From the IMG/VR virus record IMGVR_UViG_3300044716_000631: a stretch of 64,000 nucleotides of DNA. One strand, written 5' to 3'. Positions within the stretch are counted from its first letter, which is position 1; every line of letters begins with the position of its first letter. Made by a program: the position numbers and the translations under genes. Below are positions 28,939 to 45,877 of the stretch, piece by piece. The notes beneath the pieces are model-generated. The model was not told the DNA's origin. It made no database searches and worked only from the letters and a program-made list of their open reading frames with translations. Source of the stretch: a virus (taxonomy: Duplodnaviria > Heunggongvirae > Uroviricota > Caudoviricetes).

Positions 28939-30132
28939 ATGAAGTTAACTGAACATTTTTCTTTGGCAGAAATGATTGTTTCTCCTACAGCTAAAAGACT
29001 TGGCCTAAGCAACACACCAACACCTGAACACATTGAGAACATGCGTTACTGCTGCGAGAAGATTCTCGAACCAGTGCGTGCTCACTTTGGTAAACCAGTT
29101 CAGATCAACTCGTCATACCGCGCACCATTGGTGAACAAAGCGGTTGGCGGATCTAAAACATCTCAGCACGTTAACGGACAAGCGATTGACTTCGAAGTTC
29201 CTGGTGTTGATAATAAGAAGGTTGCTGACTGGGTTGCTGATAACCTTGAGTTCGACCAAGTCATTCTAGAATTCTATACTGCCGGTGACAAGAACTCTGG
29301 TTGGGTTCACGCTTCTATTAAGAAGGAAGGCGGCAACCGCAAACTACGTATGATCGCTTCAAAGTCAAAAGCCGGTGGTACAGTATATACTACTGTGAAG
29401 GATTTTGATCCTTCAACTCTTCCTGGTCAATATCGCGCAGCAGCTCAACAAGTGTCGAGTCAAGCAGCTGCTCCAGCTCAAGCTGCTCCGAAGGCGACAG
29501 CGGGTGCAGTTGCGGGTCTAGGTGCATTAGCGGCTCTCCAATCTAAGTGCGGCATTACTGCCGATGGTAAGTGGGGTCCTGGTACTTATAAGGCTGCAAG
29601 AGACTTCTTCAAGCTATCGAACAACCAAGCTGCTCACTTCTTCGGTCAGTGCGCTCACGAGTCGGGTGGCTTCAAGGTATTCCAAGAGAACCTGAACTAT
29701 TCGGACAAGGGTCTAAACGGAATCTTCAAGAAGTACTTCCCAACAATCGCATCAACTGCTGGTTACGCTCGTAAGCCAGAAAAGATTGCCAATAAGGTCT
29801 ATTCAAACCGTATGGGCAATGGACCAGAATCGTCAGGTGATGGTTGGAAGTTCCGTGGTCGTGGTCCTATCCAGTTAACTGGTAAGAGCAACTACACACA
29901 GTTCTCACAAGACATTGGTCGTCCAGATGTTCTAACTAACCCAGACATCGTTGCTACTGAACTTGCATTTGAATCAGCACTTTGGTTCTTCCGCAAGAAC
30001 AACCTGTTTGCAATCGCAGACAAGGGTGTAAGCGACGCTGTGATTACACAAATCACAAAGCGAGTGAATGGTGGAACACACGGTCTTGATGATCGTCTAA
30101 AGAAAACCAAGCAATACGCTGGTTGGGCATAA
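28939..30132 (+). CDS. multi-domain endolysin: M15-family peptidase + peptidoglycan-binding + GH19 chitinase-like glycosidase
   Basis: N-terminus SSYRAP...SQHxxGxAIDF (peptidase M15/VanY-like zinc site); middle CGITADGKWGPGTYKA (PG_binding_1-like); C-terminus AHESGGF...FRGRGPIQLTGKSNY (GH19 catalytic signature). Only clear plus-strand gene. Confidence 0.7.
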   Translation: MKLTEHFSLAEMIVSPTAKRLGLSNTPTPEHIENMRYCCEKILEPVRAHFGKPVQINSSYRAPLVNKAVGGSKTSQHVNGQAIDFEVPGVDNKKVADWVADNLEFDQVILEFYTAGDKNSGWVHASIKKEGGNRKLRMIASKSKAGGTVYTTVKDFDPSTLPGQYRAAAQQVSSQAAAPAQAAPKATAGAVAGLGALAALQSKCGITADGKWGPGTYKAARDFFKLSNNQAAHFFGQCAHESGGFKVFQENLNYSDKGLNGIFKKYFPTIASTAGYARKPEKIANKVYSNRMGNGPESSGDGWKFRGRGPIQLTGKSNYTQFSQDIGRPDVLTNPDIVATELAFESALWFFRKNNLFAIADKGVSDAVITQITKRVNGGTHGLDDRLKKTKQYAGWA

Positions 30133-30170: not shown

Positions 30171-30734
30171 TTACTTAGTTTTACCTTCTGCCAAGAATTC
30201 GGCAGCTTGCGACGGATATTCTTCGTCGTTATTAATCTCTACCTTCTTCGGCTTCTTGTGCTCTGGAATAATAGCTTCCAAAGCAATCTTCAAAATACCA
30301 TTCAGAAGAGATGCACCACGAATCTCTACGTTATCCGAAAGAGTGAAGGTGCGTGTAAATGGGCGCATTGCAAGCCCGTTATGAAGCATCTGAGGCCATC
30401 CCCACACTTCGTTAGAACCTTGTTCTGCAGGGTCTTGAGATGTGGTATTGCCCTTAATGATTAACTTGTCTTCCACGATCTCGATCTCAAGATCTTGCTT
30501 GGCAAAGCCAGCAACAGCGAGTTCGATCGTGTATTTGTTTTCGTCAATCTTCTTCAGATTGTATGGGGGATATTTTGTAGTAAAAGCAGCAGCCTGCTCT
30601 TGGGCAGCGGTTAGCTTTTTAGCAATGTCGTCAAAGCCGACAAACCAGCTGTCGAAATCTTTGAAGGCACGTGTATCGTAAAAGTTCTTCATAATTTTGC
30701 TCCTATATAAGCGAGTTTGAGTTGTGTCACCCAT
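30171..30734 (-). CDS. small heat-shock protein Hsp20/alpha-crystallin family
   Basis: Alpha-crystallin domain pattern YNLKKIDENKYTIELAVAGFAKQDLEIEIVEDKLIIKG...LLNGILKIAL. Confidence 0.7.
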   Translation of the reverse strand: MGDTTQTRLYRSKIMKNFYDTRAFKDFDSWFVGFDDIAKKLTAAQEQAAAFTTKYPPYNLKKIDENKYTIELAVAGFAKQDLEIEIVEDKLIIKGNTTSQDPAEQGSNEVWGWPQMLHNGLAMRPFTRTFTLSDNVEIRGASLLNGILKIALEAIIPEHKKPKKVEINNDEEYPSQAAEFLAEGKTK

Positions 30735-31170
30735 TAGGCGTGACAGGTTTATTTATCAGATATAACTGAACTTCAGCTTCAAGAAACATCTGTTTTGTAA
30801 TTTCCCAATTTAGATTCGGACGATCTTCAATTGGGTAATAAGAAATTACTTTCTTAATTCCTTTTTGAATAATGGACTTTGCACATTCATTGCAAGGAAG
30901 CAAAGGACTATAGAGCGTGCAGCCTTCTACAGAGAGTGGCGCATTATCAAGAGCATTGCGCTCAGCATGAGCCACAAAAAGATACTTGGTTTCTTTGTCC
31001 ATGTATCTCAAAGTGCTGTCTTTGATTCCACGAGGAAATCCATTAAAGCCAAGAGATACTACACGATTTTGCTTATCAACAATTACACAACCGACTTTTG
31101 TTGATGGATCTTTTGACCATTGAGCTACATGCTCAGCCAGTTCCATGAATCGGTCAGACCATTTACTCAT
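30727..31170 (-). CDS. cd: dCMP deaminase
   Basis: Zinc-binding HAERNAL and PCNECA motifs. Confidence 0.75.
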   Translation of the reverse strand: MSKWSDRFMELAEHVAQWSKDPSTKVGCVIVDKQNRVVSLGFNGFPRGIKDSTLRYMDKETKYLFVAHAERNALDNAPLSVEGCTLYSPLLPCNECAKSIIQKGIKKVISYYPIEDRPNLNWEITKQMFLEAEVQLYLINKPVTPNG

Positions 31171-31586
31171 TTGCTTTTTCCTGCTTTTACAATACGCTCA
31201 CGCAAACCTGATGAGCTGTAGTTGTGCTTACGACTGCAGTAGTGGATGGGAATGTCGAGATCCGATCCAGTGAAGTCTGTTCGATTAATGTAATCCATAC
31301 CAAGGAACCGAACGTCCCAATCGAAGCCGGCAAGTAAGTTGTAAAGATCTGCCTCAGTGTCGTATGGAACGATCTGGTCAACAAACTTACATGCCTCCAA
31401 CTGAATATAACGCTCGGATAGAGCTTGAACAGGCTTGTTCTTCTCAGGACGATCAATCGTAGGATCTGACTGGAGAGCCACAACCAAACGATCGCATTCA
31501 TCCTTTGCTTCCATCAGCATAAGGACATGACCTGCATGAAACAGATCAAAACAACTGGCTACAATGCCTACACGTTCCTCTCTCAT
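31167..31586 (-). CDS. nucleotidyltransferase (cytidylyltransferase / RfaE domain II-like)
   Basis: ASCFDLFHAGHVLML...LVVALQSD closely resembles GCFDILHAGH...LIVAVNSD. Confidence 0.55.
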   Translation of the reverse strand: MREERVGIVASCFDLFHAGHVLMLMEAKDECDRLVVALQSDPTIDRPEKNKPVQALSERYIQLEACKFVDQIVPYDTEADLYNLLAGFDWDVRFLGMDYINRTDFTGSDLDIPIHYCSRKHNYSSSGLRERIVKAGKSK

Positions 31587-32335: not shown

Positions 32336-32827
32336 TTAGTTTCCTTTATATTGAACCCACTTTGCAAACAGACCGACTTCGCGGCCGTATGCTTCGATCT
32401 CCCATGGAGCATCGAAGTAGTGATCTTCTTTGCCCTTTGGCTTCCAGATTTCGCCCATCCACTTGCTGTAGATTTTAAGGCCGCCACGAGCAGCAACCAC
32501 ATGGCCAGTACGAAGTTCGTTTTTGGCATGTTGCTTGACATGCACCATTTCATGGCCAAGAGTCTTAATCATGTCTTTGATGTTTTGGCTCTTAAGGCCA
32601 ATGGTGAACCACCGAGGATTACGAAAACCGTCTTCGTCAACGCATTCACCTTCAACCTCGAGGTTATTGTAAACTTCGATATCGAGAGTAAGGTTGCGGA
32701 TCATGCGAGGATCCATTAACTGAATGGCAAAAAACTCTGCAGCTTCCTTGAGAAGCGCCTTCTCTTTGCGCTTACCAATCATACCTGTGATCGTGATGTT
32801 CATAACGTTCCTTTCCATTATGTACAC
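32336..32827 (-). CDS. putative zinc metallopeptidase (HExxH)
   Basis: LGHEMVHVKQH HExxH motif; upstream TGTACA-N17-TAGAGT promoter. Confidence 0.45.
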   Translation of the reverse strand: MYIMERNVMNITITGMIGKRKEKALLKEAAEFFAIQLMDPRMIRNLTLDIEVYNNLEVEGECVDEDGFRNPRWFTIGLKSQNIKDMIKTLGHEMVHVKQHAKNELRTGHVVAARGGLKIYSKWMGEIWKPKGKEDHYFDAPWEIEAYGREVGLFAKWVQYKGN

Positions 32828-32868: not shown

Positions 32869-34929
32869 TTATTTTGTCGTTGCGCGATAAATTCCATCAA
32901 AGTTTTGAACATTCGCTTCAAGCATGTCGGTGCAGCGCTCAATCATCATATCATAGTAGGCAACCAATTCACCATTCCATGCTTCTGTCTTACGTTGTTG
33001 AGCCTGATTCATGGCTTTAATCCAGTCACCTTTGCGATATAGCTCAAGGAACGTATCATGCATGATTTGAGAATACGTATCAAAGTGTTCTACGATCGTA
33101 TAGATTTTAACTGGCTCGGTCTTGCCCTTTACCGCAAGCAGATCAAGTTCTACTACTTGGTATACATCCCGAACCATGTCCGCGGTTTGAGGCCCGATGA
33201 CGAGTTTAACTGCATAAGGCTTGGACTGACCTTCGAGACGAGCAGCCAGATTAACCCCATCACCCAAGCAAGTATAATCAAAACGCTGGTCAGAGCCCAT
33301 ATTGCCAACAACCACAGTGGCAGTGTTAATACCAAGACCCATACCGAAAGCTGGGATTCCTTCTTTTTCAACTTCTGCATTAAACGTCTCCAGATCTTTT
33401 AACATGTCGAGTGCTGTACGCACAGCATTCTTGGCGTGGTCTGCATCGTCAAGAGGTGCGTTCCAGAATGCCATCTGAGCATCGCCAATATACTTATCAA
33501 GTGTACCATTATTATCAATGATACGCTTTGTCATAGCCGTCATGTAGCGGTTCATAATCTTTGTCAGACCCTGAACGTCTTCACCATAGTGCTCAGAGAT
33601 CGTAGTGAAGCCACGTACATCAGTGAACATGATTGACAACTCTCTTGACTCGCCACCGAGTGCCAGAAGCTCAGGATTCTTTTGTAGCTTCTCAACCATA
33701 GCAGGTGATAGGTAAGTACCAAACTGCTTCTTAATTTGTTGCTTCTGTAGGAACTCTGAGATGAACTTGACTGTATAGACATGCATATAGATAATGGCAA
33801 TGGCTAAGATGTTAAACGTAACATCAAGAAGAATGCCTTTACTTGCAAACAAGTACACAGGAAGATATGCATAGGCACCAAGTAGAACTGCGATATATAT
33901 TAATGAGAAACGCAGACGTGATACTACAATGAGTGCAATTGCTAGGAATATGAATGATGCAAGATCAACAAGCCCGGTCCAGTTCGGAATCGAAACTGAA
34001 TCTCCATTTAGAAGAGTTTCAAGAACACTTGCTTGCATCTCATGAGGAAACACTCCACCAGCCGGAGTGGCTACAGGATTACTTAATCCAGCTGCAGACG
34101 CTCCAACAATCACGATTTTACCTGTTAGATCAGGAACGTTCTTGTCACCAATTTCGAATGACTGAAATTTGTAGTTCGGATTTACAAAAACACGACCATA
34201 CTCGTCGGTCTTAATAGTATCAAACTGAGGAACACGTAATGCTTCAACACCCGTCTGATTTATCTTCGCTTGATACGAAGGATCTCCTGCGGCAACACGC
34301 AGCATCTCTAGAGCAAATGCGGGGTAGTATTCGCCAGATGATTGAGCTAGAAGAGGAACTCTACGTACGACCCCATCATTCTCAGGAAGCGTTGACGATA
34401 CGCCAACACCAGCGGCGGCTTCTTGCAGAGCTGGAATATTACTTAGAACGCATGGGTATTGAGGAAGAAATTCGGTTGGTTGTCCATCACCAACGACGGC
34501 AACACCTGTCCGACGAACATCGCGATTGGATGGTCGACCGCAATCCGCCGATACAGTCTGACTAAGAACAACTGGATATTGCTTTAACGCATCGACAAGA
34601 GCTCTATCAGTACCCAACCGATCAGGCTCAGGCATAAGTATAGTGCTGCCAACAATGCCAGCCCCTCCGCCGTAAATGTCACTAATGATTTTAGCATGGA
34701 CTTCCCTCGGGAAAGGCCACTGTCCGTATTTTTCAATTGCTTTCTCCCCAATATTGGCCACCACAATCTGTTCTGACTGAACAGTTTTATCCATCATTAG
34801 ATAATCGTAAAACTTTAGACGTGTTGATTCAATCAAGAATGGATCAGCAAACTTAACCGATAATAGAACAGCAAATGTCAGCAAAGCTAACCACGGTGAA
34901 ATAAGAAATTTAATCGCCTTGTTTGACAT
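32869..34929 (-). CDS. CHASE2-sensor class III adenylate/guanylate cyclase (membrane)
   Basis: N-terminal TM, ~300-aa periplasmic region, 3 TM helices, C-terminal cyclase domain (FTDVRGFTTISE...KYIGDAQMAFWNAP...GLGINTATVVVGNMGS). Confidence 0.7.
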   Translation of the reverse strand: MSNKAIKFLISPWLALLTFAVLLSVKFADPFLIESTRLKFYDYLMMDKTVQSEQIVVANIGEKAIEKYGQWPFPREVHAKIISDIYGGGAGIVGSTILMPEPDRLGTDRALVDALKQYPVVLSQTVSADCGRPSNRDVRRTGVAVVGDGQPTEFLPQYPCVLSNIPALQEAAAGVGVSSTLPENDGVVRRVPLLAQSSGEYYPAFALEMLRVAAGDPSYQAKINQTGVEALRVPQFDTIKTDEYGRVFVNPNYKFQSFEIGDKNVPDLTGKIVIVGASAAGLSNPVATPAGGVFPHEMQASVLETLLNGDSVSIPNWTGLVDLASFIFLAIALIVVSRLRFSLIYIAVLLGAYAYLPVYLFASKGILLDVTFNILAIAIIYMHVYTVKFISEFLQKQQIKKQFGTYLSPAMVEKLQKNPELLALGGESRELSIMFTDVRGFTTISEHYGEDVQGLTKIMNRYMTAMTKRIIDNNGTLDKYIGDAQMAFWNAPLDDADHAKNAVRTALDMLKDLETFNAEVEKEGIPAFGMGLGINTATVVVGNMGSDQRFDYTCLGDGVNLAARLEGQSKPYAVKLVIGPQTADMVRDVYQVVELDLLAVKGKTEPVKIYTIVEHFDTYSQIMHDTFLELYRKGDWIKAMNQAQQRKTEAWNGELVAYYDMMIERCTDMLEANVQNFDGIYRATTK

Positions 34930-36001
34930 TGATTATAGTTCCTCCGGCAGGGTCGTTGATTTCCACTAGGAATGATTTTCCATTACTATCTATATATAGA
35001 GTTTTGTTCTCATCCTTTTTAAAACGAACATCAACTGTTGTGCTAAGTGTTCGAACAAGGCGAATGCTATCACCTGAAAGAATGGTTGTAATTTGAGTTG
35101 TATTATCAAGACCAAATATGGTACCGCATAACTTCGTACCTTCTCTGGTTACACAATCACCTCCTGCAAGACTATCATCAAGAAAGTCTTCTCCAAGGAA
35201 GTTAGCATCAATTGCATTAATGTCTAGATCTGAACTGGCAAGCTGGTCTTCTTTAAGATCGTCTTTTGCTAAGAAATCTATATCTAGTTCAGATAGATCG
35301 AGAATGTTTGATCTGGTTTCTCCGGTTTCCTCACCTGTATCAACCGCTTCTGCTGGTGATACAATTAGCATATTGTCAATCTGATCAAGAGATAGATTCA
35401 GAATTACAGGTCGAGTTGGTCTACTATCAGCAGTGGATACAACTGTTGCTTGAAAAGCTTTTGTAAGAATTACAAACCCTGCACCATTTGATACTGTAAT
35501 CTCTCCGACGGATCCATCTGGTTCTGGAAGTAAGATAACAAGGCTCTTGCCAAAATCATCTACAGTTGCAGCAAAATCTGTACCGCGAACAGCGATTGTA
35601 GCAGTTGGTGTACGAAGGTTGATATTACCTTTATTCATTTTGCCAGATTGTCCTGTAGCAAAACGAGCAGTTCCTGAAGCGAACTTGAGAGCCATTCTTG
35701 AAGTGGATGGCTTACCACTATAGACAAAGTCGTCAATCACCAGTTTCGAGTGTTCAGTAACCTTCACGGTAGAGTCGTCCACAAAAGTGATTTCGACTCT
35801 ACCGTTTCCAGTCTGTACTCTATCTAATTTGGCAATAGGTAACTGAGGTTTTGTAGGAAGACGTTGAGCCTTTTTTACAACCTCACTCGTTCCACGAGCT
35901 TGAGTTACTTTACCAATATTAGCAAGGGCCGCCGGCGTTGCACTGATTGATAACAAGAGTGCTGCCAGTGCTTGTGCTATTAACCTTGACCGTGTCAACA
36001 T
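34910..36001 (-). CDS. secreted FecR-domain protein
   Basis: Signal peptide; FecR-like core (VEITFVDDSTVKV...ALKFASGTARF...TPTATIAVRGTDF); 83-nt overlap with upstream ORF. Confidence 0.55.
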   Translation of the reverse strand: MLTRSRLIAQALAALLLSISATPAALANIGKVTQARGTSEVVKKAQRLPTKPQLPIAKLDRVQTGNGRVEITFVDDSTVKVTEHSKLVIDDFVYSGKPSTSRMALKFASGTARFATGQSGKMNKGNINLRTPTATIAVRGTDFAATVDDFGKSLVILLPEPDGSVGEITVSNGAGFVILTKAFQATVVSTADSRPTRPVILNLSLDQIDNMLIVSPAEAVDTGEETGETRSNILDLSELDIDFLAKDDLKEDQLASSDLDINAIDANFLGEDFLDDSLAGGDCVTREGTKLCGTIFGLDNTTQITTILSGDSIRLVRTLSTTVDVRFKKDENKTLYIDSNGKSFLVEINDPAGGTIINVKQGD

Positions 36002-36614
36002 TTGTTGTGCTCTTTTGGTTTACAGTCACGTTGTTTGTGCTACCAGTGAGAACCATTTCAACATTCTTACCGGCTGTTCCATTTTGTGTCATTGTAATGG
36101 TATTACCATCACCTGCAACAGTCATATCATTTACAACGTCATCAGCATTAATAGTTGATGTGTATGTATTGGTATCACCTGTGAATGTGATGTTCTGTGT
36201 TGCACCTGTAGCTGAAGCCGCTGTGCCTTGGTTGAACGTCAGGTTGTTTGAATCACCTGTGACTGCTAGAGTCTTAGTTGAACCAGAAACGCTTGCTCCA
36301 TCGCCCATATCGTATGTTACAGTGTTATTGTCACCAGTCACAGTTGAATCTATATCGATGTTATCGGCTTGTGTAATAGAACCTTGGATAAGGTTACCAT
36401 TACCTTCTTGTGTTGATGTGATTGTCTGGTTGTTACCTTCAATCACAACACGGTTTTGCTCAGAACCGATACGGTTATTTTGACCTTTTTGAGTAATCGT
36501 AATTGTGCTACCATTACCAACTTGGTCGATAAAAATCGAGTTAGTCGTCGACTGAGCATAAGCTAACGAACTCGTCATCAGAGACATAATGAAAAGTGCT
36601 AGTGCCTTTTTCAT
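35919..36614 (-). CDS. secreted curlin-repeat-like beta-solenoid protein (candidate CsgA/B-like substrate)
   Basis: Signal peptide MKKALALFIMSLMTSSLAYA; ~8 imperfect ~22-aa repeats with Q/N/G/T spacing (ITQKGQNNRIGSEQN, TSTQEGNGNLIQGS, LTFNQGTAASATGATQN, ITMTQNGTAGKN, VTVNQKSTTN); immediately downstream of csgG. Confidence 0.4.
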   Translation of the reverse strand: MKKALALFIMSLMTSSLAYAQSTTNSIFIDQVGNGSTITITQKGQNNRIGSEQNRVVIEGNNQTITSTQEGNGNLIQGSITQADNIDIDSTVTGDNNTVTYDMGDGASVSGSTKTLAVTGDSNNLTFNQGTAASATGATQNITFTGDTNTYTSTINADDVVNDMTVAGDGNTITMTQNGTAGKNVEMVLTGSTNNVTVNQKSTTNVDTVKVNSTSTGSTLVINQCNAGGPC

Positions 36615-37402
36615 TGTCCTTCTTCCTTGTAGTGAAAGTATCCTTTCGAAATACCTTGTTTAATTAGTTGTAATACCGCTTCTTCGATGGCCATTTTGAC
36701 CGCCATTGTGTTAGCTTCATTCTCTGTCATTCCGGCTTCGGCTTCAACAAGCTTAGTGCCGACATCTACAAACTTAAAAACTGAAAGATCTCTGCCAACT
36801 GAGAGAACTGTTTTTGAAACCTGTACGTTGAGAATTACTTCTCCAGTATTTGTATTCACACCACGCAACGAAACAACCACCTGATCTTTACGGTACATAG
36901 TAGTACCGCCAATGCCAAGATATCTTGCTCCTGCACCACCAGATTCCAAATTCGAATCGTAACCAATAATACCACCTTGAATAATTAAACCAGCAAAGAG
37001 CATTGGCTCGAGTTTGTTGGCACCTTCTCCAAGATATTCTTCTCGTGTTTGTCGAACAATCTGACGTTCCTTTGCAAGATCGTCAACACGATTACGTTCA
37101 ACAACTCTAAACCATGCTCCACCACCAGCTTCTGTCAGTGCAGAGATCAGAAGCGCTGTACCACCTTGAGTCACCGCAGTCGAGATACTGGCAATGCCAT
37201 CCTTATCTCTTCTTTGACCAGTCAGATCTGGAAAGTCATAGACAGCCACAACTGCTTGTCTTTCTGGTGGTGAAAGGCTCTGCAGTTCTTTTACTTGTAG
37301 TTGTACAAGCTTTGGTTTATCCTGAAGCTGAAGAGCTCCGGAACCCATAGACATACACCCACTCAGAAAAAATGGTAATAAAAAGACTTTCCACTTTACC
37401 AT
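36611..37402 (-). CDS. csgG: curli production assembly/transport lipoprotein CsgG
   Basis: Lipobox LSGC; IIGYDSNLESGGAGARYLGIGGTTMYRKDQVVVSLRGVNTNTGEVILNVQVSKTVLS aligns with E. coli CsgG IIGYESNVKSGGVGARYFGIGADTQYQLDQIAVNLRVVNVSTGEILSSVNTSKTILS. Confidence 0.8.
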   Translation of the reverse strand: MVKWKVFLLPFFLSGCMSMGSGALQLQDKPKLVQLQVKELQSLSPPERQAVVAVYDFPDLTGQRRDKDGIASISTAVTQGGTALLISALTEAGGGAWFRVVERNRVDDLAKERQIVRQTREEYLGEGANKLEPMLFAGLIIQGGIIGYDSNLESGGAGARYLGIGGTTMYRKDQVVVSLRGVNTNTGEVILNVQVSKTVLSVGRDLSVFKFVDVGTKLVEAEAGMTENEANTMAVKMAIEEAVLQLIKQGISKGYFHYKEEGQ

Positions 37403-37836
37403 TTGAATCCACTCGTTGGAATGATAATTTCAGTGGTGTTACCAGCATCGTCAGTGATAACTAGCTTAATCTCAGTGTCAGTCTTCTCATACTTAATGGT
37501 ATTACCTTCAAGGCTAAACTCACCAGACTGGCCACCCATTTCACCGAATAGGTTATTAGTCAGCTGTTGAGCAAGCTGAGAATAGATACGTGACTGCAGG
37601 TTATTCATGAATCGATTCAGAATCGAATTCTTTTCCTCGAGTGCAGCAGCTTTTAGATCAGCTTCAATTTTATCTTGAATCGCTTTCTTACGGCTGAACT
37701 CTTGGTTTTCAATTGTTAACCATTGTGCTCCAGCGTTCTGTCCGCTGAATGAAGGATTCTTAAATTGGAATACTAACTCACTTGCTAGGGCTGGCTGGCT
37801 TACCAGAAGCAGGCTGAGTATCAACAGCTTTTTCAT
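37396..37836 (-). CDS. csgF: curli assembly protein CsgF
   Basis: Signal peptide then ELVFQFKNPSFSGQNAG matching E. coli CsgF TMTFQFRNPNFGGNPNNG; similar length; directly upstream of csgG as in csgEFG. Confidence 0.65.
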   Translation of the reverse strand: MKKLLILSLLLVSQPALASELVFQFKNPSFSGQNAGAQWLTIENQEFSRKKAIQDKIEADLKAAALEEKNSILNRFMNNLQSRIYSQLAQQLTNNLFGEMGGQSGEFSLEGNTIKYEKTDTEIKLVITDDAGNTTEIIIPTSGFKW

Positions 37837-37910
37837 CGAGCTTATCCTTCTTCAATTTTAGTTCCTTATCAGAAGAAAGATTAAACTCAAGTGAGAAGAT
37901 CTTAATGATT

Positions 37911-38174
37911 TCAATTTTCAGGTTTATGGTCACTATGATCTTCCTTTATCTGCAATACAACACTCACCTTCTGTTGAAGTCTAATTAAATCGTTATCCAG
38001 CATACGAATACGATCAATTAGAGCAATCAAAATTACATTAGTTTCTGAAATTAATGGCATTAATCTATCAGTAACAAACTTATAGATGAAGAATACAAAG
38101 TACCCCATCCCTACAGACGCTACAATAGGAAAGCCATATTGTTTTATAAGTTCAGCAATCGTGTTGAGATCCAT
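37911..38174 (-). CDS. small TM protein, paralog B
   Basis: N-terminus MDLNTIAELIKQYGFPIVAS parallels MNYDAIFKLIADVGFPIAAA of ORF 38329-38616. Confidence 0.4.
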   Translation of the reverse strand: MDLNTIAELIKQYGFPIVASVGMGYFVFFIYKFVTDRLMPLISETNVILIALIDRIRMLDNDLIRLQQKVSVVLQIKEDHSDHKPEN

Positions 38175-38329
38175 TACTTACCTTTCTTAACGAAGGTAAT
38201 TCTCTCATTCACAATTGCAATTACAAATTCATCGCCGTCTTTTACGCCAATTAATTCAGGTTTTAGATCAGGTTCAAAACGAATTGAACCGTCTGATGTT
38301 AAATCGAACACATAGTCCACAAATAGCAT
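38174..38329 (-). CDS. small ORF (51 aa; not in ORF track)
   Basis: MLFVDYVFDLTSDGSIRFEPDLKPELIGVKDGDEFVIAIVNERITFVKKGK; TAATG overlaps with both neighbours. Confidence 0.3.
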   Translation of the reverse strand: MLFVDYVFDLTSDGSIRFEPDLKPELIGVKDGDEFVIAIVNERITFVKKGK

Positions 38330-38616
38330 TAGTCTCTCCGAGCATCATTCTTTCCATCAGCTCGAGCGATACGATCGAGATCCGGTTTTAGTCCAAGTGC
38401 CGAACTTACAACCGCATCCACGCGAATGATATCATGGTTCATAGTCTTGACGCGATTGTCAAGTCCCATGATGATACCTTGCATTCCTTTAATAGCCTTC
38501 ACAACACTTTCTAAAATATAATTAATGACGAAATACACGAAAACCCCACCGAGCAATGCAGCCGCGATGGGGAACCCGACATCAGCAATTAGTTTAAAAA
38601 TAGCGTCGTAGTTCAT
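38329..38616 (-). CDS. small TM protein, paralog A
   Basis: Paralog of 37911-38174; TATAAATA (minus) at 38624-38631 just upstream of ATG. Confidence 0.4.
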   Translation of the reverse strand: MNYDAIFKLIADVGFPIAAALLGGVFVYFVINYILESVVKAIKGMQGIIMGLDNRVKTMNHDIIRVDAVVSSALGLKPDLDRIARADGKNDARRD

Positions 38617-38638
38617 ACGATTCTATTTATAAGTTAGG

Positions 38639-39596: not shown

Positions 39597-39767
39597 TTAG
39601 TCTTTTAGATTCTTTGCAGGCCGATAATGATAGTCATCGTGGATGTTTTCTCCCATGAAATTGACATCCATTTCGTTAATTTCCTTGAGAACGCGGTATC
39701 CAAGGTAGGAAAGGATTCCTACAACAGCTACGCTAGCAACTCCTGCAACTACAGTTTTCTTATCCAT
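39597..39767 (-). CDS. small TM protein (56 aa; not in ORF track)
   Basis: MDKKTVVAGVASVAVVGILSYLGYRVLKEINE...; ATG overlaps peroxiredoxin stop (AATGGATAA). Confidence 0.3.
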   Translation of the reverse strand: MDKKTVVAGVASVAVVGILSYLGYRVLKEINEMDVNFMGENIHDDYHYRPAKNLKD

Positions 39768-40365
39768 TTTCTTTTAGCCAGTTCAGAATGTTTTCTGGAG
39801 ATGTTTCACCATAAGGATCTGACTCACAGTTATCTTCGATGCCAGGTTCGATGAACCACTTTTCAATCTTACCATTGTTGACAACACACGCATAACGCCA
39901 AGAACGCTCGCCGAATCCAAGATTGTCCTTGTCGACACTCATTTTCATCTTGTGAGTAAACTTGGCAGATCCATCAGGAATCATTTTCACCTTCTTGATC
40001 TTTTGCTGCTTGGCCCAGCAGTTCATTACGAATGCATCGTTAACCGATACACAAAGGATGTCATCAATACCCAGTTCCTTGAAAGCCTTGAAGTTTTCTT
40101 CAAAGCCAGGAAGCTGATATGTCGAGCATGTAGGAGTGAATGCACCAGGAAGTGAGAAGAGAACTACACGCTTCTTAGCAAAGTAGTCAAACGTGGTCTT
40201 GTCTTCCCAGCGATACGGATTGTCTCCGCCAATTGACTCATCACGAACACGAGTCTTAAAAACTACGCTAGGAACAACAACAGGGAGTTCCTGTGTATTG
40301 TCATCATACTTGTTCCATGAGCGCTTAACAGCAATTGTTTCTACCATACTATATTTCCTTACCAA
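39760..40365 (-). CDS. peroxiredoxin (Prx5-like thiol peroxidase)
   Basis: Peroxidatic Cys motif FSLPGAFTPTCS. Confidence 0.7.
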   Translation of the reverse strand: MVRKYSMVETIAVKRSWNKYDDNTQELPVVVPSVVFKTRVRDESIGGDNPYRWEDKTTFDYFAKKRVVLFSLPGAFTPTCSTYQLPGFEENFKAFKELGIDDILCVSVNDAFVMNCWAKQQKIKKVKMIPDGSAKFTHKMKMSVDKDNLGFGERSWRYACVVNNGKIEKWFIEPGIEDNCESDPYGETSPENILNWLKENG

Positions 40366-40915: not shown

Positions 40916-40990
40916 TGGCTCCTCAAGATGGATTCGAACCACCGACCAGGCGATTAACAGTCGCCGGCTCTACCGCTGAGCTATTGAGGA
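40916..40990 (-). tRNA. tRNA-Asn (GUU)
   Basis: Cloverleaf by eye; anticodon loop CUGUUAA; GGTTCGAATCC T-loop; encoded CCA. Confidence 0.8.
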
Positions 40991-41033
40991 ATAAACTCTT
41001 ATTTTCTTAGTCTACACTATATATTAATTAATG

Positions 41034-41228
41034 TCAACCAATATTTTTTAGTTCACTAAGAATTTCTTTATAATGACGAGCAAGAATTTCGCGAATATCT
41101 TGCTTCTGCTTTGGTGTTACGAATTGAAAATCAAAATATAGATTGCCATTCATCGAAGATTCGCCAGCTGCATTGCTAGCATCTTCTAGAAAATCGCTCG
41201 TGTGCATTTGTGATTTAGTAGTAATCAT
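41034..41228 (-). CDS. hypothetical protein (64 aa)
   Basis: ORF between tRNA genes. Confidence 0.3.
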   Translation of the reverse strand: MITTKSQMHTSDFLEDASNAAGESSMNGNLYFDFQFVTPKQKQDIREILARHYKEILSELKNIG

Positions 41229-41247
41229 AACAAACTCCTAAGAAAAA

Positions 41248-41324
41248 TGGAGCCCCCGACAGGATTCGAGCCTGTAACCTTTCGCTTCGTAGGCGAGTGC
41301 TCTATCCAGTTGAGCTACGGAGGC
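41248..41324 (-). tRNA. tRNA-Arg (ACG)
   Basis: Anticodon loop CUACGAA; good acceptor/T-arm; CCA encoded. Confidence 0.75.
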
Positions 41325-41329
41325 ATAAA

Positions 41330-41404
41330 TGGTACCGGATGACGGGATTGAACCGCCGACCCTCTCGGTGTAAACGAGACGCTCTACCGCTGAGCTAATC
41401 CGGC
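41330..41404 (-). tRNA. tRNA-Val (UAC)
   Basis: Anticodon loop UUUACAC; canonical arms. Confidence 0.75.
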
Positions 41405-41412
41405 ATTAAACT

Positions 41413-41495
41413 TGGTACGCCTAGAGGGACTCGAACCCCCACGCTTTCGCACTGGTACCTAAAACCAGCGTGTCTACCAATTCCACCATAGGCGC
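41413..41495 (-). tRNA. tRNA-Leu (UAG), type II
   Basis: 83 nt, long variable arm; anticodon loop UUUAGGU. Confidence 0.65.
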
Positions 41496-41496
41496 A

Positions 41497-41572
41497 TGGT
41501 GCCTTCGGACGGATTCGAACCGCCGACACCTGGTACTTCAGACCAGTGCTCTACCAACTGAGCTACAAAGGC
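41497..41572 (-). tRNA. tRNA-Phe (GAA)
   Basis: Anticodon loop CUGAAGU. Confidence 0.8.
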
Positions 41573-41795
41573 AAATAAAAACTCCTCAACAAATGCGTTT
41601 CCTAGGACACATAAGTTGCCGCCTGTCGTTTCAGGTCAGGACTTAAACCAGAGGTCGGAGTCAATGTAAGTGACCACCTGCAGTGTGCCTTGATTGCTTA
41701 CTTCCGGACGTTGCAATCTTCCCAGATAAAAACAATGTTGCAACAATGTTTTTATCACTTCACGGGTTCAGCCGAGGTGGTCTAGTGGCCTATAT

Positions 41796-41870
41796 TGGTG
41801 GAGGATAACGGGATCGAACCGTTGACCTTCTGCGTGCAAGGCAGACGCTCTCCCAGCTGAGCTAATCCCC
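41796..41870 (-). tRNA. tRNA-Ala (UGC)
   Basis: Anticodon loop CUUGCAC; acceptor GGGGATT. Confidence 0.8.
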
Positions 41871-42021
41871 CCAATATCTTTAAACACAATTTTAATATTC
41901 GAAACTTTATATATCTCTGCTAAAACGGTTTCATCTGTAAACGCCGCACGATTCAAAAGTGTATCGGACATAAACATTACACATTCTGCAGATTCGCTTC
42001 TCATATTCACATTTCTATCTT

Positions 42022-42096
42022 GGTGACACAGGATGGATTCGAACCATCGACTGATGGCGTATGAGACCATTGCTCTACCACTGAGCTACTGTGCCG
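42022..42096 (-). tRNA. tRNA-Met (CAU), elongator-type
   Basis: Anticodon loop CUCAUAC; G1-C72. Confidence 0.7.
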
Positions 42097-42103
42097 TTAT
42101 TCT

Positions 42104-42179
<76 letters not shown>

Positions 42180-42184
42180 TTAAA

Positions 42185-42262
42185 TGGTCGGGAATGTAGG
42201 ATTCGAACCTACGACCTCCTGCTCCCAAAGCAGGCGCGCTGACCAGACTGTGCTAATCCCCG
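42185..42262 (-). tRNA. tRNA-Pro (UGG)
   Basis: Anticodon loop UUUGGGA. Confidence 0.7.
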
Positions 42263-42311
42263 TTATATGCTATCTATATATACATTCTAAATTAAAGTAC
42301 ACAAAAAAATT

Positions 42312-42387
42312 TGGATGCCCCTCCAGGGCTCGAACCTGGACTTTTCGGAATCAAAATCCGACGTGTTGCCTATTACACCAAGGGGCA
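42312..42387 (-). tRNA. tRNA-Gln (UUG)
   Basis: Anticodon loop UUUUGAU; U1-A72 as in bacterial tRNA-Gln. Confidence 0.7.
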
Positions 42388-42394
42388 ATAAAAA

Positions 42395-42479
42395 TGGTGG
42401 GCCGGTGAGGTATCGATCCTCCCCCGCGAACGGATCAGATTTACAGTCTGACTGCCAGAGCCACTGGCTTTACCGACCC
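42395..42479 (-). tRNA. tRNA-Tyr (GUA), type II
   Basis: 85 nt with long variable arm; anticodon loop CUGUAAA. Confidence 0.65.
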
Positions 42480-42484
42480 AAAAA

Positions 42485-42560
<76 letters not shown>

Positions 42561-42570
42561 ATAAAATTAG

Positions 42571-42686
42571 ATTCTAGGCGATTGATAAGTGCACCTCTGG
42601 CTCGCCGAGGATCGAACTCGGTTATCAACTCTTAGCCTGTCGTGTACTTTGACAGGACTTCTTATCCACCGGTTCAGACCTAGAAT
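42571..42686 (-). ncRNA. unclassified structured element / degenerate tRNA-like sequence
   Basis: 8-bp closing helix ATTCTAGG/CCTAGAAT, perfect T-arm-like hairpin CCGAGTTCGATCCTCGG, 6-bp hairpin CCTGTC-9nt-GACAGG; no canonical cloverleaf found. Confidence 0.3.
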
Positions 42687-42839
42687 ATTCAAAACTGATA
42701 AACTACTGAAAAGTAGGCCTTTACACCATTAGACCAAGTCACTTTACTGCCTCTGTACTTTTTGTTCGGTACGAGAGGGGACTTTGGTAATGGAAGTAAA
42801 ATCCAATCTTCGTATTTCATAATATACTCTTTCAAAAAC

Positions 42840-42915
42840 TGGTGAACGATCTGGGGCTCGAACCCAGGACACACAGGTTAAAAGCCCGTTGCTCTACCTA
42901 CTGAGCTAATCGTCC
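42840..42915 (-). tRNA. tRNA-Lys (UUU)
   Basis: Anticodon loop CUUUUAA; acceptor GGACGAT identical to tRNA-Lys(CUU). Confidence 0.75.
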
Positions 42916-42923
42916 ATTAAACT

Positions 42924-43124
42924 TTAACCGATGTAGATCCGATACTCATCGGAATCTACTGGCGCACCTATAGTACGACGTTCGACATAGTAGCGCTGGA
43001 TGAACCGATCGCCATCACGAGTATACACACCGTGAGCAGTCCGTGCTTCATCTTCCGACGCATACACGCCAAGGAGCACCGAACCTTCGTAATCCCATTC
43101 ACCTAATAATGCAAAAACTTCCAT
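42924..43124 (-). CDS. small hypothetical protein (66 aa; internal start of listed ORF)
   Basis: MEVFALLGEWDYEG...; ATG overlaps upstream stop (TGATATGG). Confidence 0.35.
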   Translation of the reverse strand: MEVFALLGEWDYEGSVLLGVYASEDEARTAHGVYTRDGDRFIQRYYVERRTIGAPVDSDEYRIYIG

Positions 43125-43125
43125 A

Positions 43126-43269
43126 TCACATCTCCATAATTTCAAATCGAGCATCAAATGCATTATCCAATACTGCCACAAATTCATCATAATCAGCACC
43201 TGCTTCTTCGCAGGCTTTACGCATCAACCGAACCATGTCGGCAATCATTTCTTCGCGGCTGAGAATCAT
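43126..43269 (-). CDS. small hypothetical protein (47 aa; not in ORF track)
   Basis: MILSREEMIADMVRLMRKACEEAGADYDEFVAVLDNAFDARFEIMEM; upstream TGTACA-N17-TAGTAT promoter. Confidence 0.35.
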   Translation of the reverse strand: MILSREEMIADMVRLMRKACEEAGADYDEFVAVLDNAFDARFEIMEM

Positions 43270-43352
43270 AACCATTTCCTTTAGCTTATTATTCATACTA
43301 CCAAAGATTTGATAAAATGTACACTAAAAAATGCACGGTATGAAAAATAATT

Positions 43353-43430
43353 TGGTAGGGGTAGTGGGACTCGAACCCACACTGTGCGAATTTTAAGTCC
43401 GCTGACTCTAACCAATTGGCCTATACCCCC
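43353..43430 (-). tRNA. tRNA with anticodon UAA (Leu-decoding) but type I (short variable arm)
   Basis: Anticodon loop CUUAAAA; good acceptor and T-arm; only 5-nt variable region and 3-bp D-stem. Confidence 0.5.
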
Positions 43431-43431
43431 A

Positions 43432-43506
43432 TGGGGTGATCGACGGGTATCGAGCCCGCAACTCCGGATTCACAATCCAGCATGTATCCATTAACACCTC
43501 GACCAC
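43432..43506 (-). tRNA. tRNA-His (GUG) with encoded G-1
   Basis: Anticodon loop UUGUGAA; extra 5' G pairing with discriminator C. Confidence 0.7.
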
Positions 43507-43510
43507 CATA

Positions 43511-43596
43511 TGGCGGAACGTCAGGGAGTCGAACCCTGTCTACCCTAAGGTAGTACACCTTAGCAGGGTGCTGCATTACCGTCCTGCCCACGTTCC
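43511..43596 (-). tRNA. tRNA-Ser (GCU), type II
   Basis: 86 nt; anticodon loop CUGCUAA; long variable arm. Confidence 0.7.
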
Positions 43597-43602
43597 TAAA
43601 CT

Positions 43603-43677
43603 TGGTAGCCCGAAAGGGTTTCGATCCCTCTTCTCCGCTGTGAAAGAGCGGTGTCCTAGCCATTAGACGACCGGGCC
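43603..43677 (-). tRNA. tRNA-Glu (UUC)
   Basis: Anticodon loop CUUUCAC. Confidence 0.7.
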
Positions 43678-43678
43678 A

Positions 43679-43753
43679 TGGAGCGGGTGAGCGGATTCGA
43701 ACCGCCGACCACTTCGTTGGCAACGAAGAGCTCTACCACTGAGCTACACCCGC
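43679..43753 (-). tRNA. tRNA-Gly (GCC)
   Basis: Anticodon loop UUGCCAA. Confidence 0.8.
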
Positions 43754-43762
43754 ATTAAAATT

Positions 43763-43834
43763 TGGTTGCGGGAGGGCGAATCGAACGCCACCGAAAGGTT
43801 ATGAGCCTAACATGCTACCGTTACAATATCCCGC
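43763..43834 (-). tRNA. divergent tRNA-like gene with CAU anticodon (Met/Ile2/initiator candidate)
   Basis: Anticodon loop CUCAUAA; weak anticodon stem; possible C1-A72 mismatch; 72 nt. Confidence 0.35.
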
Positions 43835-43841
43835 GTTAAAC

Positions 43842-43915
43842 TGGTGCGGACATCGAGAATCGAACTCGAGACCTCTGGGTGGAAGCCAGATACGTTACCT
43901 CTACGCCATGCCCGC
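43842..43915 (-). tRNA. tRNA-Gly (UCC)
   Basis: Anticodon loop CUUCCAC. Confidence 0.75.
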
Positions 43916-43917
43916 AA

Positions 43918-44009
43918 TGGAGGAAGCGGTGGGATTCGAACCCACGGTACCCGCAAAGGTACGTCTGATTTCAAGTCAGGTGCTTTAAACCGCGCTCAGC
44001 CACGCTTCC
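43918..44009 (-). tRNA. tRNA-Ser (UGA), type II
   Basis: 92 nt; anticodon loop CUUGAAA; long variable arm. Confidence 0.7.
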
Positions 44010-44340
44010 CTATATTTCTAGATTTGTAGGTATCTAATTGAGAATCGCAGTTACTACAAACAAATCTAAGATTTTCTAATCGATTGTCATTATTGATTCC
44101 ATTTATATGATCAAGAATTAATGGCATTGGTTTACCATTCCATTCTGGACCTATACCACAACACCCGCAGTTATATTCAATTTTTTGATCTTGAATAATG
44201 CGTTTTTTGATATGGTGTCTGGCATATGTAGAATTTTCTACAAATACTTCATCATCAGGACGTCTAATAGAAGCATGATATTCTGTAAGAATACCTTTTT
44301 TACCTCTATTCCAGGGTGTAGAACCTTTTAATGCTGGCAT
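43996..44340 (-). mobile_element. HNH homing endonuclease gene inserted in tRNA array (~114 aa)
   Basis: Start at internal Met MPALKG of listed ORF; HNH core EWNGKPMPLILDHINGINNDNRLENLRFVCSNCDSQL; stop lies 14 nt inside 5' end of tRNA-Ser(UGA). Confidence 0.6.
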
Positions 44341-44405
44341 ATATTTTCTCCTCTGCTTATTTATAAGCATTGGTATTTCTAACATATGCAATCGATAAAA
44401 AAAAA

Positions 44406-44481
44406 TGGTGCGTCTAGTAGGCTCCGACCCTACGACCTCACCCTTATCAGGGGTGTGCTCTACCAACTGAGCTATAGACGC
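44406..44481 (-). tRNA. tRNA-Ile (GAU)
   Basis: Anticodon loop CUGAUAA; perfect 7-bp acceptor; unusual T-loop GUCGGAG. Confidence 0.65.
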
Positions 44482-44489
44482 AATATTAA

Positions 44490-44594
44490 ACACACTGGCT
44501 ACTGAGGTGTTGCCACGCTACCGGCAGTAATTTCGCTCTTTACGTTCCCATCTTCCCCCAAAACGCTTGGTCGCCACGGGAACTTCCAGTGTGT
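44490..44594 (-). ncRNA. structured RNA element, copy 2, between tRNA-Trp and tRNA-Ile
   Basis: See copy 1 (40805-40911); flanked on both sides by tRNA genes, so RNase P/Z processing would release it. Confidence 0.5.
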
Positions 44595-44627
44595 ATCTTA
44601 AAACTCTAACAATTTCAAAGAGCATTC

Positions 44628-44702
44628 TGGCGAGGGTGCCAGGATTCGAACCCGGATCGCAAGGTTTTGGAGACCTGCATGTTACCGTTACAACACACCG
44701 AC
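44628..44702 (-). tRNA. tRNA-Trp (CCA) candidate with acceptor-stem mismatches
   Basis: Anticodon arm CAGGU-CUCCAAA-ACCUU resembles E. coli tRNA-Trp; 5 of 7 acceptor pairs. Confidence 0.5.
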
Positions 44703-44708
44703 ATAACT

Positions 44709-44785
44709 TGGCGATCTAGAAGGGACTTGAACCCTCGACCTCTCGCGTGACAGGCGAGTGCTCTAACCAACTGAGCTACTAGACC
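44709..44785 (-). tRNA. tRNA-Asp (GUC)
   Basis: Anticodon loop CUGUCAC; preceded by TTGACA and TATAAATA motifs. Confidence 0.75.
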
Positions 44786-44795
44786 AATGAACTTG

Positions 44796-44836
44796 TATTT
44801 ATACCGTTCTACTACATTTTCGCAAATATGTCAACA
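44796..44836 (-). promoter_or_regulatory. overlapping early (TTGACA-N17-TAGAAC) and late (TATAAATA) promoter motifs upstream of tRNA-Asp
   Basis: Minus TATAAATA at 44796-44803, 12 nt before tRNA 5' end; TTGACA at ~44831-44836. Confidence 0.4.
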
Positions 44837-44843
44837 ATTATTT

Positions 44844-45296: not shown

Positions 45297-45302
45297 TCAT
45301 TA

Positions 45303-45380
45303 TGGAGTCACGAGCGGGATTCGAACCCGCGGCTTTCAGGTTTTGCAGACCTGTGCATTGGACCACTCTGCCACCGTGAC
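45303..45380 (-). tRNA. tRNA-Cys (GCA)
   Basis: Anticodon loop CUGCAAA. Confidence 0.7.
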
Positions 45381-45385
45381 ATTAA

Positions 45386-45685: not shown

Positions 45686-45799
45686 AATATATTCTCCAAA
45701 ACAAAAATAATACCATTTTTTGAGCTCACTACCGTCTACCATCATGGTCGGGGTGGTTACCTGACACCGTCGTGGTGCTGGCGTAGTGAACTCAAAAAA

Positions 45800-45875: not shown

Positions 45876-45877
45876 AA

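Follow-up and report, generated by a model that had tools for sequence, protein, structure and literature searches.

The 64,000-nucleotide stretch of DNA analysed here (the window; IMG/VR virus record IMGVR_UViG_3300044716_000631, assigned to the Caudoviricetes) carries a minus-strand cassette that encodes, in order of transcription, two small single-transmembrane proteins (sTM2 and sTM1), the secretion proteins CsgF and CsgG, a curlin-like repeat protein, a secreted FecR-domain protein and a membrane CHASE2 cyclase. We lean towards reading this cassette as a minimal, late type VIII secretion system (T8SS) that would export a curlin-like fibre subunit and would be coupled to a FecR/CHASE2 receptor adenylate cyclase. 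The cassette is almost certainly identical in kind to the viral T8SS cassette already published for marine phages; the window places it in a separate T4-like phage lineage, and the same five-gene core was also identified in bacterial chromosomal islands.

Gene organization of the cassette

The five genes from CsgF to the cyclase are tightly packed between positions 32869 and 37836, and the positions of their open reading frames (ORFs) agreed exactly with those given in a preliminary description of this DNA, made from the letters alone. As the genes of the cassette overlap or abut, an operon is indicated; the overlaps amount to 7 nt between CsgF and CsgG, 4 nt between CsgG and the repeat gene, 83 nt between the repeat gene and the FecR gene, and 20 nt between the FecR gene and the cyclase gene. 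The six families named in the preliminary description (CsgG, CsgF, Curlin_rpt, FecR, CHASE2 and Guanylate_cyc) were all matched above the Pfam thresholds. The NCBIfam models agreed in direction, with scores that were all under the equivalog cut-offs, which are centred on E. coli (CsgG 166.6 against 505 bits, CsgF 29.5 against 171, CsgA 17.5 against 160). Since these cut-offs were not reached and CsgE, CsgC and CsgD are absent, an assignment to the E. coli-type curli system (csgDEFG/csgBAC) was rejected. No Pfam match to CsgE, CsgC or CsgD was found in the cassette ORFs or in the three small ORFs upstream, and the earlier observation that two paralogous small transmembrane (TM) proteins lie upstream, with no CsgE, was borne out by Pfam, NCBIfam and an alignment of the paralogues.

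CsgG and CsgF

CsgG was identified by its match to PF03783 (4.5e-48, 163.8 bits against a gathering score of 20.8), together with the lipobox LSGC read from its sequence. Its residues 10-258 align with the solved structures of E. coli CsgG (5e-45). The preliminary description had reported an almost residue-for-residue alignment with the E. coli protein; strong similarity was indeed observed, spanning the C-terminal two-thirds, and near-identity was not. At the alignment positions of Y51, N55 and F56, which we take to be the constriction residues of E. coli CsgG, the protein of the window reads K, S and I.

The identity of CsgF, also proposed before, was established by PF10614 (7.9e-24, 84.7 bits against a gathering score of 25.8), by a Sec-type signal peptide read from the sequence (..PALA followed by SE) and by alignment to E. 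coli CsgF (6l7a). In that alignment, SELVFQFKNPSFSGQ-NAG at the mature N-terminus pairs with GTMTFQFRNPNFGGNPNNG, and the peptide by which CsgF binds CsgG is kept (FQFKNPSFSGQ-N against FQFRNPNFGGNPN of E. coli). The Asn in the aligned N-terminus is presumably the constriction residue N17. Because the CsgG-binding peptide is kept, CsgF counts against the published suggestion that phage CsgG and CsgF no longer interact. Taken together, the lipobox, the full-length alignment of CsgG and the plug peptide of CsgF are compatible with a working channel and cap.

The curlin-like repeat protein

The third protein of the core carries a Sec-type signal peptide (..LAYA followed by QS, read from the sequence) and matches Curlin_rpt (PF07012) in one repeat only, at 2.6e-4 and 21.3 bits against a gathering score of 20.7. 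T, N, G and Q are abundant in it, and its periodicity is weak; comparison of the protein with itself gave little similarity, peaking at offsets 11, 24 and 26. The structural model contains 17 strands that form about eight strand-turn-strand rungs. The roughly eight repeats of about 22 residues counted in the preliminary description are thus an approximation. A profile of the phage repeat family compared with that of a bacterial curlin gave an hhalign probability of 85.7% (E 5.5e-6) over residues 26-76. Additionally, the hidden Markov model (HMM) of the phage repeat family matches CsgG-adjacent bacterial proteins that are themselves strong Curlin_rpt proteins. The predicted model matches the CsgA fibril subunit, as expected of a CsgA-like beta-solenoid fold. 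The Curlin_rpt match, the profile comparison and the predicted fold agree with the earlier proposal that the protein is a curlin-like candidate substrate.

The FecR-domain protein and the CHASE2 cyclase

The FecR-domain protein matches PF04773 at residues 60-154 (2.7e-11) and begins with a cleavable Sec-type signal peptide (..AALA followed by NI, read from the sequence), in accordance with its previous description as a secreted protein. Pfam detected no anti-sigma N-terminal domain in it, only the periplasmic FecR domain. Since this domain lies behind a signal peptide, the protein is not a FecR-type anti-sigma factor. No FecI- or FecA-like gene was found among the annotated neighbours of the cassette, and a reading as a FecIRA iron-citrate regulator, which would call for these partners, an anti-sigma N-domain and a TM segment, is not supported. 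A match of the protein to AbiEi (3.4e-4) was weak and partial and was rejected. Its AlphaFold2 model was of low confidence, with a predicted local distance difference test score (pLDDT) of 32.6, because all available homologues were at least 77% identical. The long start of the gene is supported by the homologues in Pelagibacter phage HTVC008M and the Methylophilales phage Melnitz, which have about 365 aa. This start produces an out-of-frame overlap of the signal-peptide region with the 3' end of the curlin-like gene (35919-36001), which is kept in the clade of the window, whereas the corresponding overlap is 0-23 nt in HTVC008M and Melnitz.

The cyclase matches CHASE2 (5.6e-40) and Guanylate_cyc (2.2e-18) in Pfam, both as first described, and is laid out as a TM segment, a periplasmic CHASE2 domain, about three TM segments and a class III cyclase domain. 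Among proteins of solved structure, adenylate cyclases alone make up its best matches (CyaB, 3r5g, at 4e-31), and the motifs FTDVRGFT, DKYIGD and DYTCLGDGVNLAARLE align with conserved CyaB motifs. From general knowledge of class III cyclases, we assume that these motifs supply the two metal-binding Asp residues, the Lys/Thr substrate pair and the Asn/Arg pair. The residues are consistent with activity, with ATP as the substrate and with a class III adenylate cyclase bearing a CHASE2 sensor; judged from these features, the membrane sensor probably makes cyclic AMP (cAMP). The cyclase also hits PycC in PADLOC (5.7e-25), but only through the shared cyclase fold, and membership in Pycsar was rejected, the cassette having no effector.

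Pairs of this type have been described in bacteria. In Sinorhizobium meliloti, the FecR-domain protein SMc02177 and the receptor adenylate cyclase CyaD1 (SMc02176) are consecutive by locus tag; without CHASE2, a construct of CyaD1 makes cAMP constitutively, and SMc02177 is not required for perceiving the plant signal. The likeness to the cassette lies in a FecR-domain protein beside a CHASE2 sensor with class III adenylate cyclase output, in an alphaproteobacterium. In the BiofilmReg operon of Burkholderia and Pseudomonas aeruginosa, a LysM-FecR protein is paired with a CHASE2 histidine kinase; here too a secreted FecR-domain protein is encoded beside a membrane sensor with periplasmic CHASE2, but the output in Burkholderia is a kinase. 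Unlike the cassette, neither pair is linked to a T8SS. The recurrence of such bacterial pairs counts in favour of the FecR-domain protein being the partner of CHASE2.

Phage context of the window

The preliminary description had placed the genes in a T4-like phage, and this was confirmed by a tRNA cluster, a gp43-like polymerase and further T4-like core genes. The 25 tRNA genes are all on the minus strand at 40916-45954, just upstream of the cassette region; the B-family gp43-like polymerase is about 51% identical to cyanomyophage polymerases; and PHROG matches in the window include the gp41 helicase, UvsX, gp46/47, RnlA and a virion structural protein. The GC content, about 42%, is even across the cassette (roughly 0.40-0.45 over the window). 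In a near-identical 60.9-kb metagenomic contig (L073) and in a 337.8-kb contig (L072), the cassette adjoins the same polymerase.

That the window might be a bacterial contig, or a chimeric assembly carrying ordinary bacterial curli genes, was considered because genes of the CsgG family occur mostly in bacteria and because some cassette-bearing contigs are filed under bacterial metagenome-assembled genomes (MAGs). T4-like core genes, however, flank the cassette on both sides within the window, the GC content is uniform, and the same context recurs on the near-identical contig and on contigs of 337-361 kb. Moreover, two of the MAG contigs are plainly phage: L076 and L078, whose MAGs bear the labels Rhodobacterales and Sphingobacteriales, have the polymerase and a number of further phage genes in common with the window and are phage contigs mis-binned into bacterial MAGs. 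We therefore rejected the bacterial-contig reading, which we regard as extremely improbable.

Relation to the published cassette and to known systems

The preliminary description knew of no equivalent in T4-like phages. This did not hold, since the same gene order is already annotated in HTVC008M and Melnitz and was published in 2020-2022; descriptions of the cassette, from marine phages of SAR11 and OM43, date from 2013 to 2022. Neither the cassette nor a 12-kb flank gave useful megablast matches among isolate phages, and a protein-level search was needed: tblastn with CsgG detected HTVC008M (46%) and four Methylophilales Melnitz phages (43%). In HTVC008M (KC465899) and Melnitz the order is two small hypothetical genes, CsgF, CsgG, a curlin-associated gene, a FecR or hypothetical gene, (a second curlin gene) and an adenylate/guanylate cyclase gene.

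Zaragoza-Solas 2020 reported the CsgGF part of a phage T8SS, for which it suggested a role in "sibling capture" or as an uptake pore (PMC7029224). Buchholz 2022 discussed CsgGF and proposed a pinholin- or secretin-like lysis timer (PMC9004378). Wittmers 2022 described the full cassette in pelagiphage myo- and podoviruses, including curlin, FecR, adenylate cyclase and upstream genes labelled "histidine kinase" (HK), with no CsgE, and reported its presence at all 65 GOV2 stations and its expression in ocean metatranscriptomes (PMC9599517). The full cassette was the subject of no further paper in our literature search. In agreement with the cassette of Wittmers 2022, that of the window is co-linear (with a single curlin gene), is phage-encoded, has no CsgE, CsgC or CsgD, and contains a CsgG of the viral type.

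HTVC008M, Melnitz, uncultured pelagimyophages and HTVC023P-type podophages share the seven homologous genes in the same order, likewise without CsgE, CsgC and CsgD, and both the pelagiphage-type cassettes and that of the window lie in a T4-like genome between replication and other modules. The proteins of the window are, in contrast, only 29-50% identical to those of the isolates (CsgG 43-46%), and many pelagimyophages have two curlin genes where the window has one. The lineage of the window is separate from the pelagiphages, with a polymerase nearest to those of cyanomyophages, its 25 tRNAs, its GC content and relatives whose contigs reach 361 kb.

Among cellular systems, the curli loci of Alphaproteobacteria and Bacteroidota (Sphingomonadales, Erythrobacter, Flavobacteriaceae) resemble the cassette in the adjacency of CsgF and CsgG, in the adjoining curlin genes and in the lack of CsgD and CsgE. 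Their CsgG proteins are 41-50% identical to that of the window; their curlins are much longer, with Curlin_rpt E values from 1e-20 to 1e-88 against 2.6e-4 in the window. The csgBAC-csgDEFG system of E. coli and Salmonella (6l7a, 4uv3, 8enq) is alike in CsgG, in the CsgF plug peptide and in a substrate model that matches CsgA, and differs in the presence of CsgE, CsgC and CsgD, in the constriction residues and in the NCBIfam scores. In the holdfast system HfaA/HfaB/HfaD of Caulobacter, HfaB is a lipoprotein of the CsgG family that exports a curlin-like anchor protein; the NCBIfam HfaB model matches the CsgG of the window weakly (1.8e-8, 33.9 bits against 166.6 for CsgG), and the cassette has no HfaD-like gene. 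The Hfa system is not known to include CsgF, which the cassette has.

Distribution and linkage in viruses

CsgG proteins 41-97% identical to that of the window were found at 69 IMG/VR loci, and more than 7000 database homologues were detected; cassette-bearing viral contigs reach 258-361 kb. The order sTM2, sTM1, CsgF, CsgG, repeat protein, FecR, cyclase is kept across 73 loci wherever the contig is long enough, over 25-97% identity, with an extra gene ahead of the cyclase gene in pelagimyophage-like loci. When the search was seeded with the cyclase, CsgF, CsgG, the repeat protein and FecR were present in every one of the 53 viral loci that had 4.5 kb or more of upstream sequence. The cassette is thus a strictly co-inherited unit, and the window belongs to a distinct, abundant T4-like lineage. 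In five loci (L072, L156, L205, L221 and L232) the cassette lies on 258-361 kb viral contigs with T4-like polymerase neighbours, and some members of this lineage may be jumbo phages. Genes for ferritin and ART-PolyVal are nearby in L072 and L156, and an amidoligase gene in L072 only.

Bacterial islands carrying the five-gene core

The bacterial comparison covered 80 CsgG loci, the nearest ones among bacterial genome assemblies. About 75 of these have CsgF, CsgG and curlins, and neither FecR nor a CHASE2 cyclase nor the sTM pair lies within 10 kb of them. Three MAG contigs that are bacterial, in contrast, have the five-gene core and lack the sTM pair, namely L074 and L075 from Caulobacteraceae, and L154 from Sphingorhabdus. 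In L074 (9400-15600), CsgF, CsgG, two curlin-like genes, FecR and the CHASE2 cyclase gene are preceded immediately upstream by a Metallophos gene; the island is flanked by cytochrome c, amidohydrolase, acyl-CoA dehydrogenase and TetR genes, and its GC content is 46-52% against 55-59% in the flanks. L075 has the same six genes in the same order. In L154 (CAUPRN010000008.1, 8389-20690), the genes MiaB, PhoH, YbeY, CorC and RarA are upstream and the island begins right after tRNA-Thr(tgt), with a GC content of 41-48% against 55-57% in the flanks. Further along it are genes for a Metallophos protein, a class III cyclase of GAF-GAF type and a PycTM-like effector with two TM segments, which may form a Pycsar-like system, a single observation. 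The L154 island is 69% identical to the window at the DNA level over 4.7 kb, with CsgG 83-85% identical, and this similarity may hint at a host or at recent transfer. The possibility that the three are mis-binned phage contigs was rejected owing to the housekeeping genes on both sides in L074 and L154.

The CsgG proteins linked to cassettes were monophyletic in 92 of 100 neighbour-joining (NJ) bootstraps, and in all 100 replicates both islands grouped with the lineage of the window, apart from pelagiphages and ordinary bacteria. As the islands are nested in the phage clade in these bootstraps, transfer from phage to bacterium is indicated. Judged by their gene content, the islands qualify the published statement that FecR and the cyclase are absent from bacterial T8SS operons.

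Small transmembrane proteins, promoter and neighbouring genes

The two sTM proteins are paralogous (32% identity, E 3e-15), each with one TM segment and a helical tail (Table 1). No Pfam or NCBIfam domain was found in either at E values up to 0.1; sTM2 matches phrog_18771, which is annotated as of unknown function. With 87 and 95 aa and neither HisKA nor HATPase_c, they give no domain support to the published HK label for the small upstream genes. An N-terminal match of sTM1 to a holin PHROG (E 0.0015 over 22 residues) was not significant and was rejected as weak and partial. Among isolate phages the pair occurs only in HTVC008M and Melnitz, and it is linked to the cassette in 47 of the 49 loci with at least 6 kb of upstream sequence. 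In a few lineages, one of them a sub-lineage comprising L033, L035, L036, L038, L040 and L041, the pair is placed downstream, beyond the cyclase and on the other strand; it is still linked to the cassette and not always co-transcribed with it. The ORF between the two genes has no family match in Pfam, and homologues were present in just two of the 73 loci (L025 and L039).

The late-promoter-like motif TATAAATA sits 7 nt ahead of the first ATG of the cassette, that of sTM2. Seven copies are present in the window, all on the coding strand, against 2.7 expected on both strands. In the clade of the window, ATAAATA at -12 or -14 from the ATG is kept though the flanks diverge; it is present in 20 of 39 distinct upstream regions, often 3' of a GC hairpin and a T-run. 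This conservation and the motif itself suggest that the cassette may be a separate late transcription unit. A scan for sigma-70 promoters and terminators performed no better than on shuffled sequence. With the 7-nt spacing, which the clade has kept, a late mRNA would have almost no leader. Two further copies of TATAAATA lie within the tRNA cluster (44358 and 44796).

Directly 3' of the cyclase gene, an ORF of 163 aa (32336-32827) has a match to phrog_10499 and a weak one to a metalloprotease PHROG; its conservation is limited to the closest relatives, and it is probably outside the cassette. According to Pfam searches on L073, an endolysin-like gene with Peptidase_M15 and GH19 is located on the plus strand (28939-30132) among minus-strand genes, and HSP20, dCMP deaminase, cytidylyltransferase-like and AhpC/TSA peroxiredoxin genes are located on the minus strand near 30171-31586 and 39760-40365.

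Table 1. Features of the cassette region, with positions in the window.
Feature	Position	Strand	Evidence
CHASE2 class III adenylate cyclase (putative), 686 aa	32869-34929	minus	Pfam
FecR-domain secreted protein, 363 aa	34910-36001	minus	Pfam and signal peptide
Curlin-like repeat protein, 231 aa, candidate T8SS substrate	35919-36614	minus	Pfam, profile comparison, predicted fold
CsgG homologue, 263 aa, outer-membrane lipoprotein channel subunit	36611-37402	minus	Pfam and lipobox
CsgF homologue, 146 aa	37396-37836	minus	Pfam and signal peptide
sTM1, single-TM protein, 87 aa	37911-38174	minus	Paralogue of sTM2
51-aa ORF between the sTM genes, probably outside the cassette	38174-38329	minus	
sTM2, single-TM protein, 95 aa	38329-38616	minus	Paralogue of sTM1
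Late-promoter-like motif TATAAATA, T4-type	38624-38631	minus	Consensus match

Proposed mechanism and alternative explanations

The analysis shows the identities of the domains, residues compatible with function, the strict linkage of the genes, the predicted fold and the phage setting; from these features we infer secretion, fibre formation, cAMP synthesis, their timing and a pay-off to the phage, in the following manner. The cassette would be transcribed as its own unit, probably late in infection. CsgG would be exported, lipidated and assembled as an outer-membrane channel into which CsgF would plug through its N-terminal peptide, and the Sec-exported curlin-like protein would cross this channel and polymerise as a beta-solenoid, forming a curli-like fibre or coat on the infected cell. 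The FecR-domain protein would act as the periplasmic partner of CHASE2, so that the inner-membrane cyclase would make cAMP on an envelope or periplasmic cue, and the two sTM proteins would be phage-specific accessories. Aggregation of the host, "sibling capture" or masking of the surface against superinfection may be the benefit to the phage.

Several observations weigh against this fibre-secreting, receptor-coupled system. The curlin call is marginal by sequence, both at the Pfam gathering score and in the NCBIfam CsgA model; the confident alignment to curlin is confined to residues 26-76, and a Foldseek search of the repeat-protein model against the PDB gave nothing significant. The constriction residues of E. 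coli CsgG appear not to be conserved, a CsgE-like specificity factor is missing, and the cassette contains no cAMP effector or other effector binding cyclic nucleoside monophosphates (cNMPs). The putative promoter is a consensus match only, with an unusually short spacing to the ATG. In addition, Melnitz-infected cells were not clumped in cytograms or in transmission electron microscopy (TEM) (Buchholz 2022, PMC9004378).

Some of these points would suit a simpler pore, in which CsgG, with or without CsgF, acts as a pinholin- or secretin-like channel that times lysis by depolarising or permeabilising the envelope, and the curlin-like gene is irrelevant, as Buchholz 2022 proposed (PMC9004378). 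Melnitz infections without clumping and a divergent C-terminal part of CsgF, both from that paper, are in favour of it. The late-promoter-like signal, the altered constriction residues and the non-significant holin-PHROG match of sTM1 also agree with it. Lipobox proteins, however, are sorted to the outer membrane, across which there is no proton motive force, and this destination is expected for CsgG, whose lipobox is retained. CsgF retains its CsgG-binding peptide, and a simple pore leaves the invariable co-inheritance of curlin-like substrate, FecR and cyclase (53 of 53 loci) unexplained, so that we find a lysis timer quite unlikely. Another alternative is an ungated uptake or leak channel, in which a CsgG-CsgF pore left open for want of CsgE would pass cofactors, siderophores or other solutes into or out of the periplasm in support of phage replication, and FecR and the cyclase would report the flux (Zaragoza-Solas 2020; Wittmers 2022). 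The universally kept curlin-like secreted protein and the CsgF cap would then have no explanation. The absence of CsgE and the streamlined, oligotrophic hosts of the described phages speak for such a channel. So does the FecR-domain family, which is associated with TonB-dependent signalling; the FecR protein of the window, however, has neither the anti-sigma nor the TM part of true FecR, the annotated neighbours include no gene resembling FecA or FecI, and an open pore in the outer membrane would be a liability to the cell. We give this explanation little credence.

The bacterial islands bear on another alternative, namely that the five-gene core is a mobile unit for envelope sensing and secretion that serves competition among phages or of phage with host, for example superinfection exclusion via CHASE2, FecR and cAMP, and not aggregation or biofilm. 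The core occurs in low-GC islands nested in the phage clade, one of which adjoins a tRNA gene and the Pycsar-like cyclase and PycTM pair, and superinfection defence was also raised by Wittmers 2022 (PMC9599517). The defence neighbourhood, however, is found in one island only; the PADLOC matches to PycC reflect the shared cyclase fold, the cyclase of the window scoring the same; the cassette has no cNMP-binding effector; and none of CsgG, the repeat protein and the sTM pair was hit by PADLOC. We consider a conflict module unlikely, and we are similarly doubtful of its wider form, in which the core would shuttle between T4-like phages and alphaproteobacterial chromosomes, serving to sense the envelope and remodel the surface in phage-phage or phage-host conflict, and the phage-only sTM pair would adapt the unit to the infection cycle. 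Secretion of a curlin-like fibre, coupled to a receptor adenylate cyclase, is thus the reading towards which we lean.

Significance

The cassette itself was already described; new here are a separate lineage, strict linkage, the CsgF plug peptide, the cyclase residues, the late-promoter-like motif and the bacterial islands. Two published annotations should be corrected, namely the "histidine kinase" label of the small upstream genes and the claim that bacterial T8SS operons never contain FecR and the cyclase. For experiment, the analysis offers as targets the CsgF plug peptide, the substrate with a predicted CsgA-like fold, the intact-looking cyclase residues, the likely late promoter and the islands that stem from the phage clade. 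In aquatic viromes the cassette is abundant, here with hundreds of metagenomic proteins and contigs of up to 361 kb, and, as the window shows, its range extends past the phages of SAR11 and OM43. Infected cells would thereby gain a secretion system that the known hosts lack.

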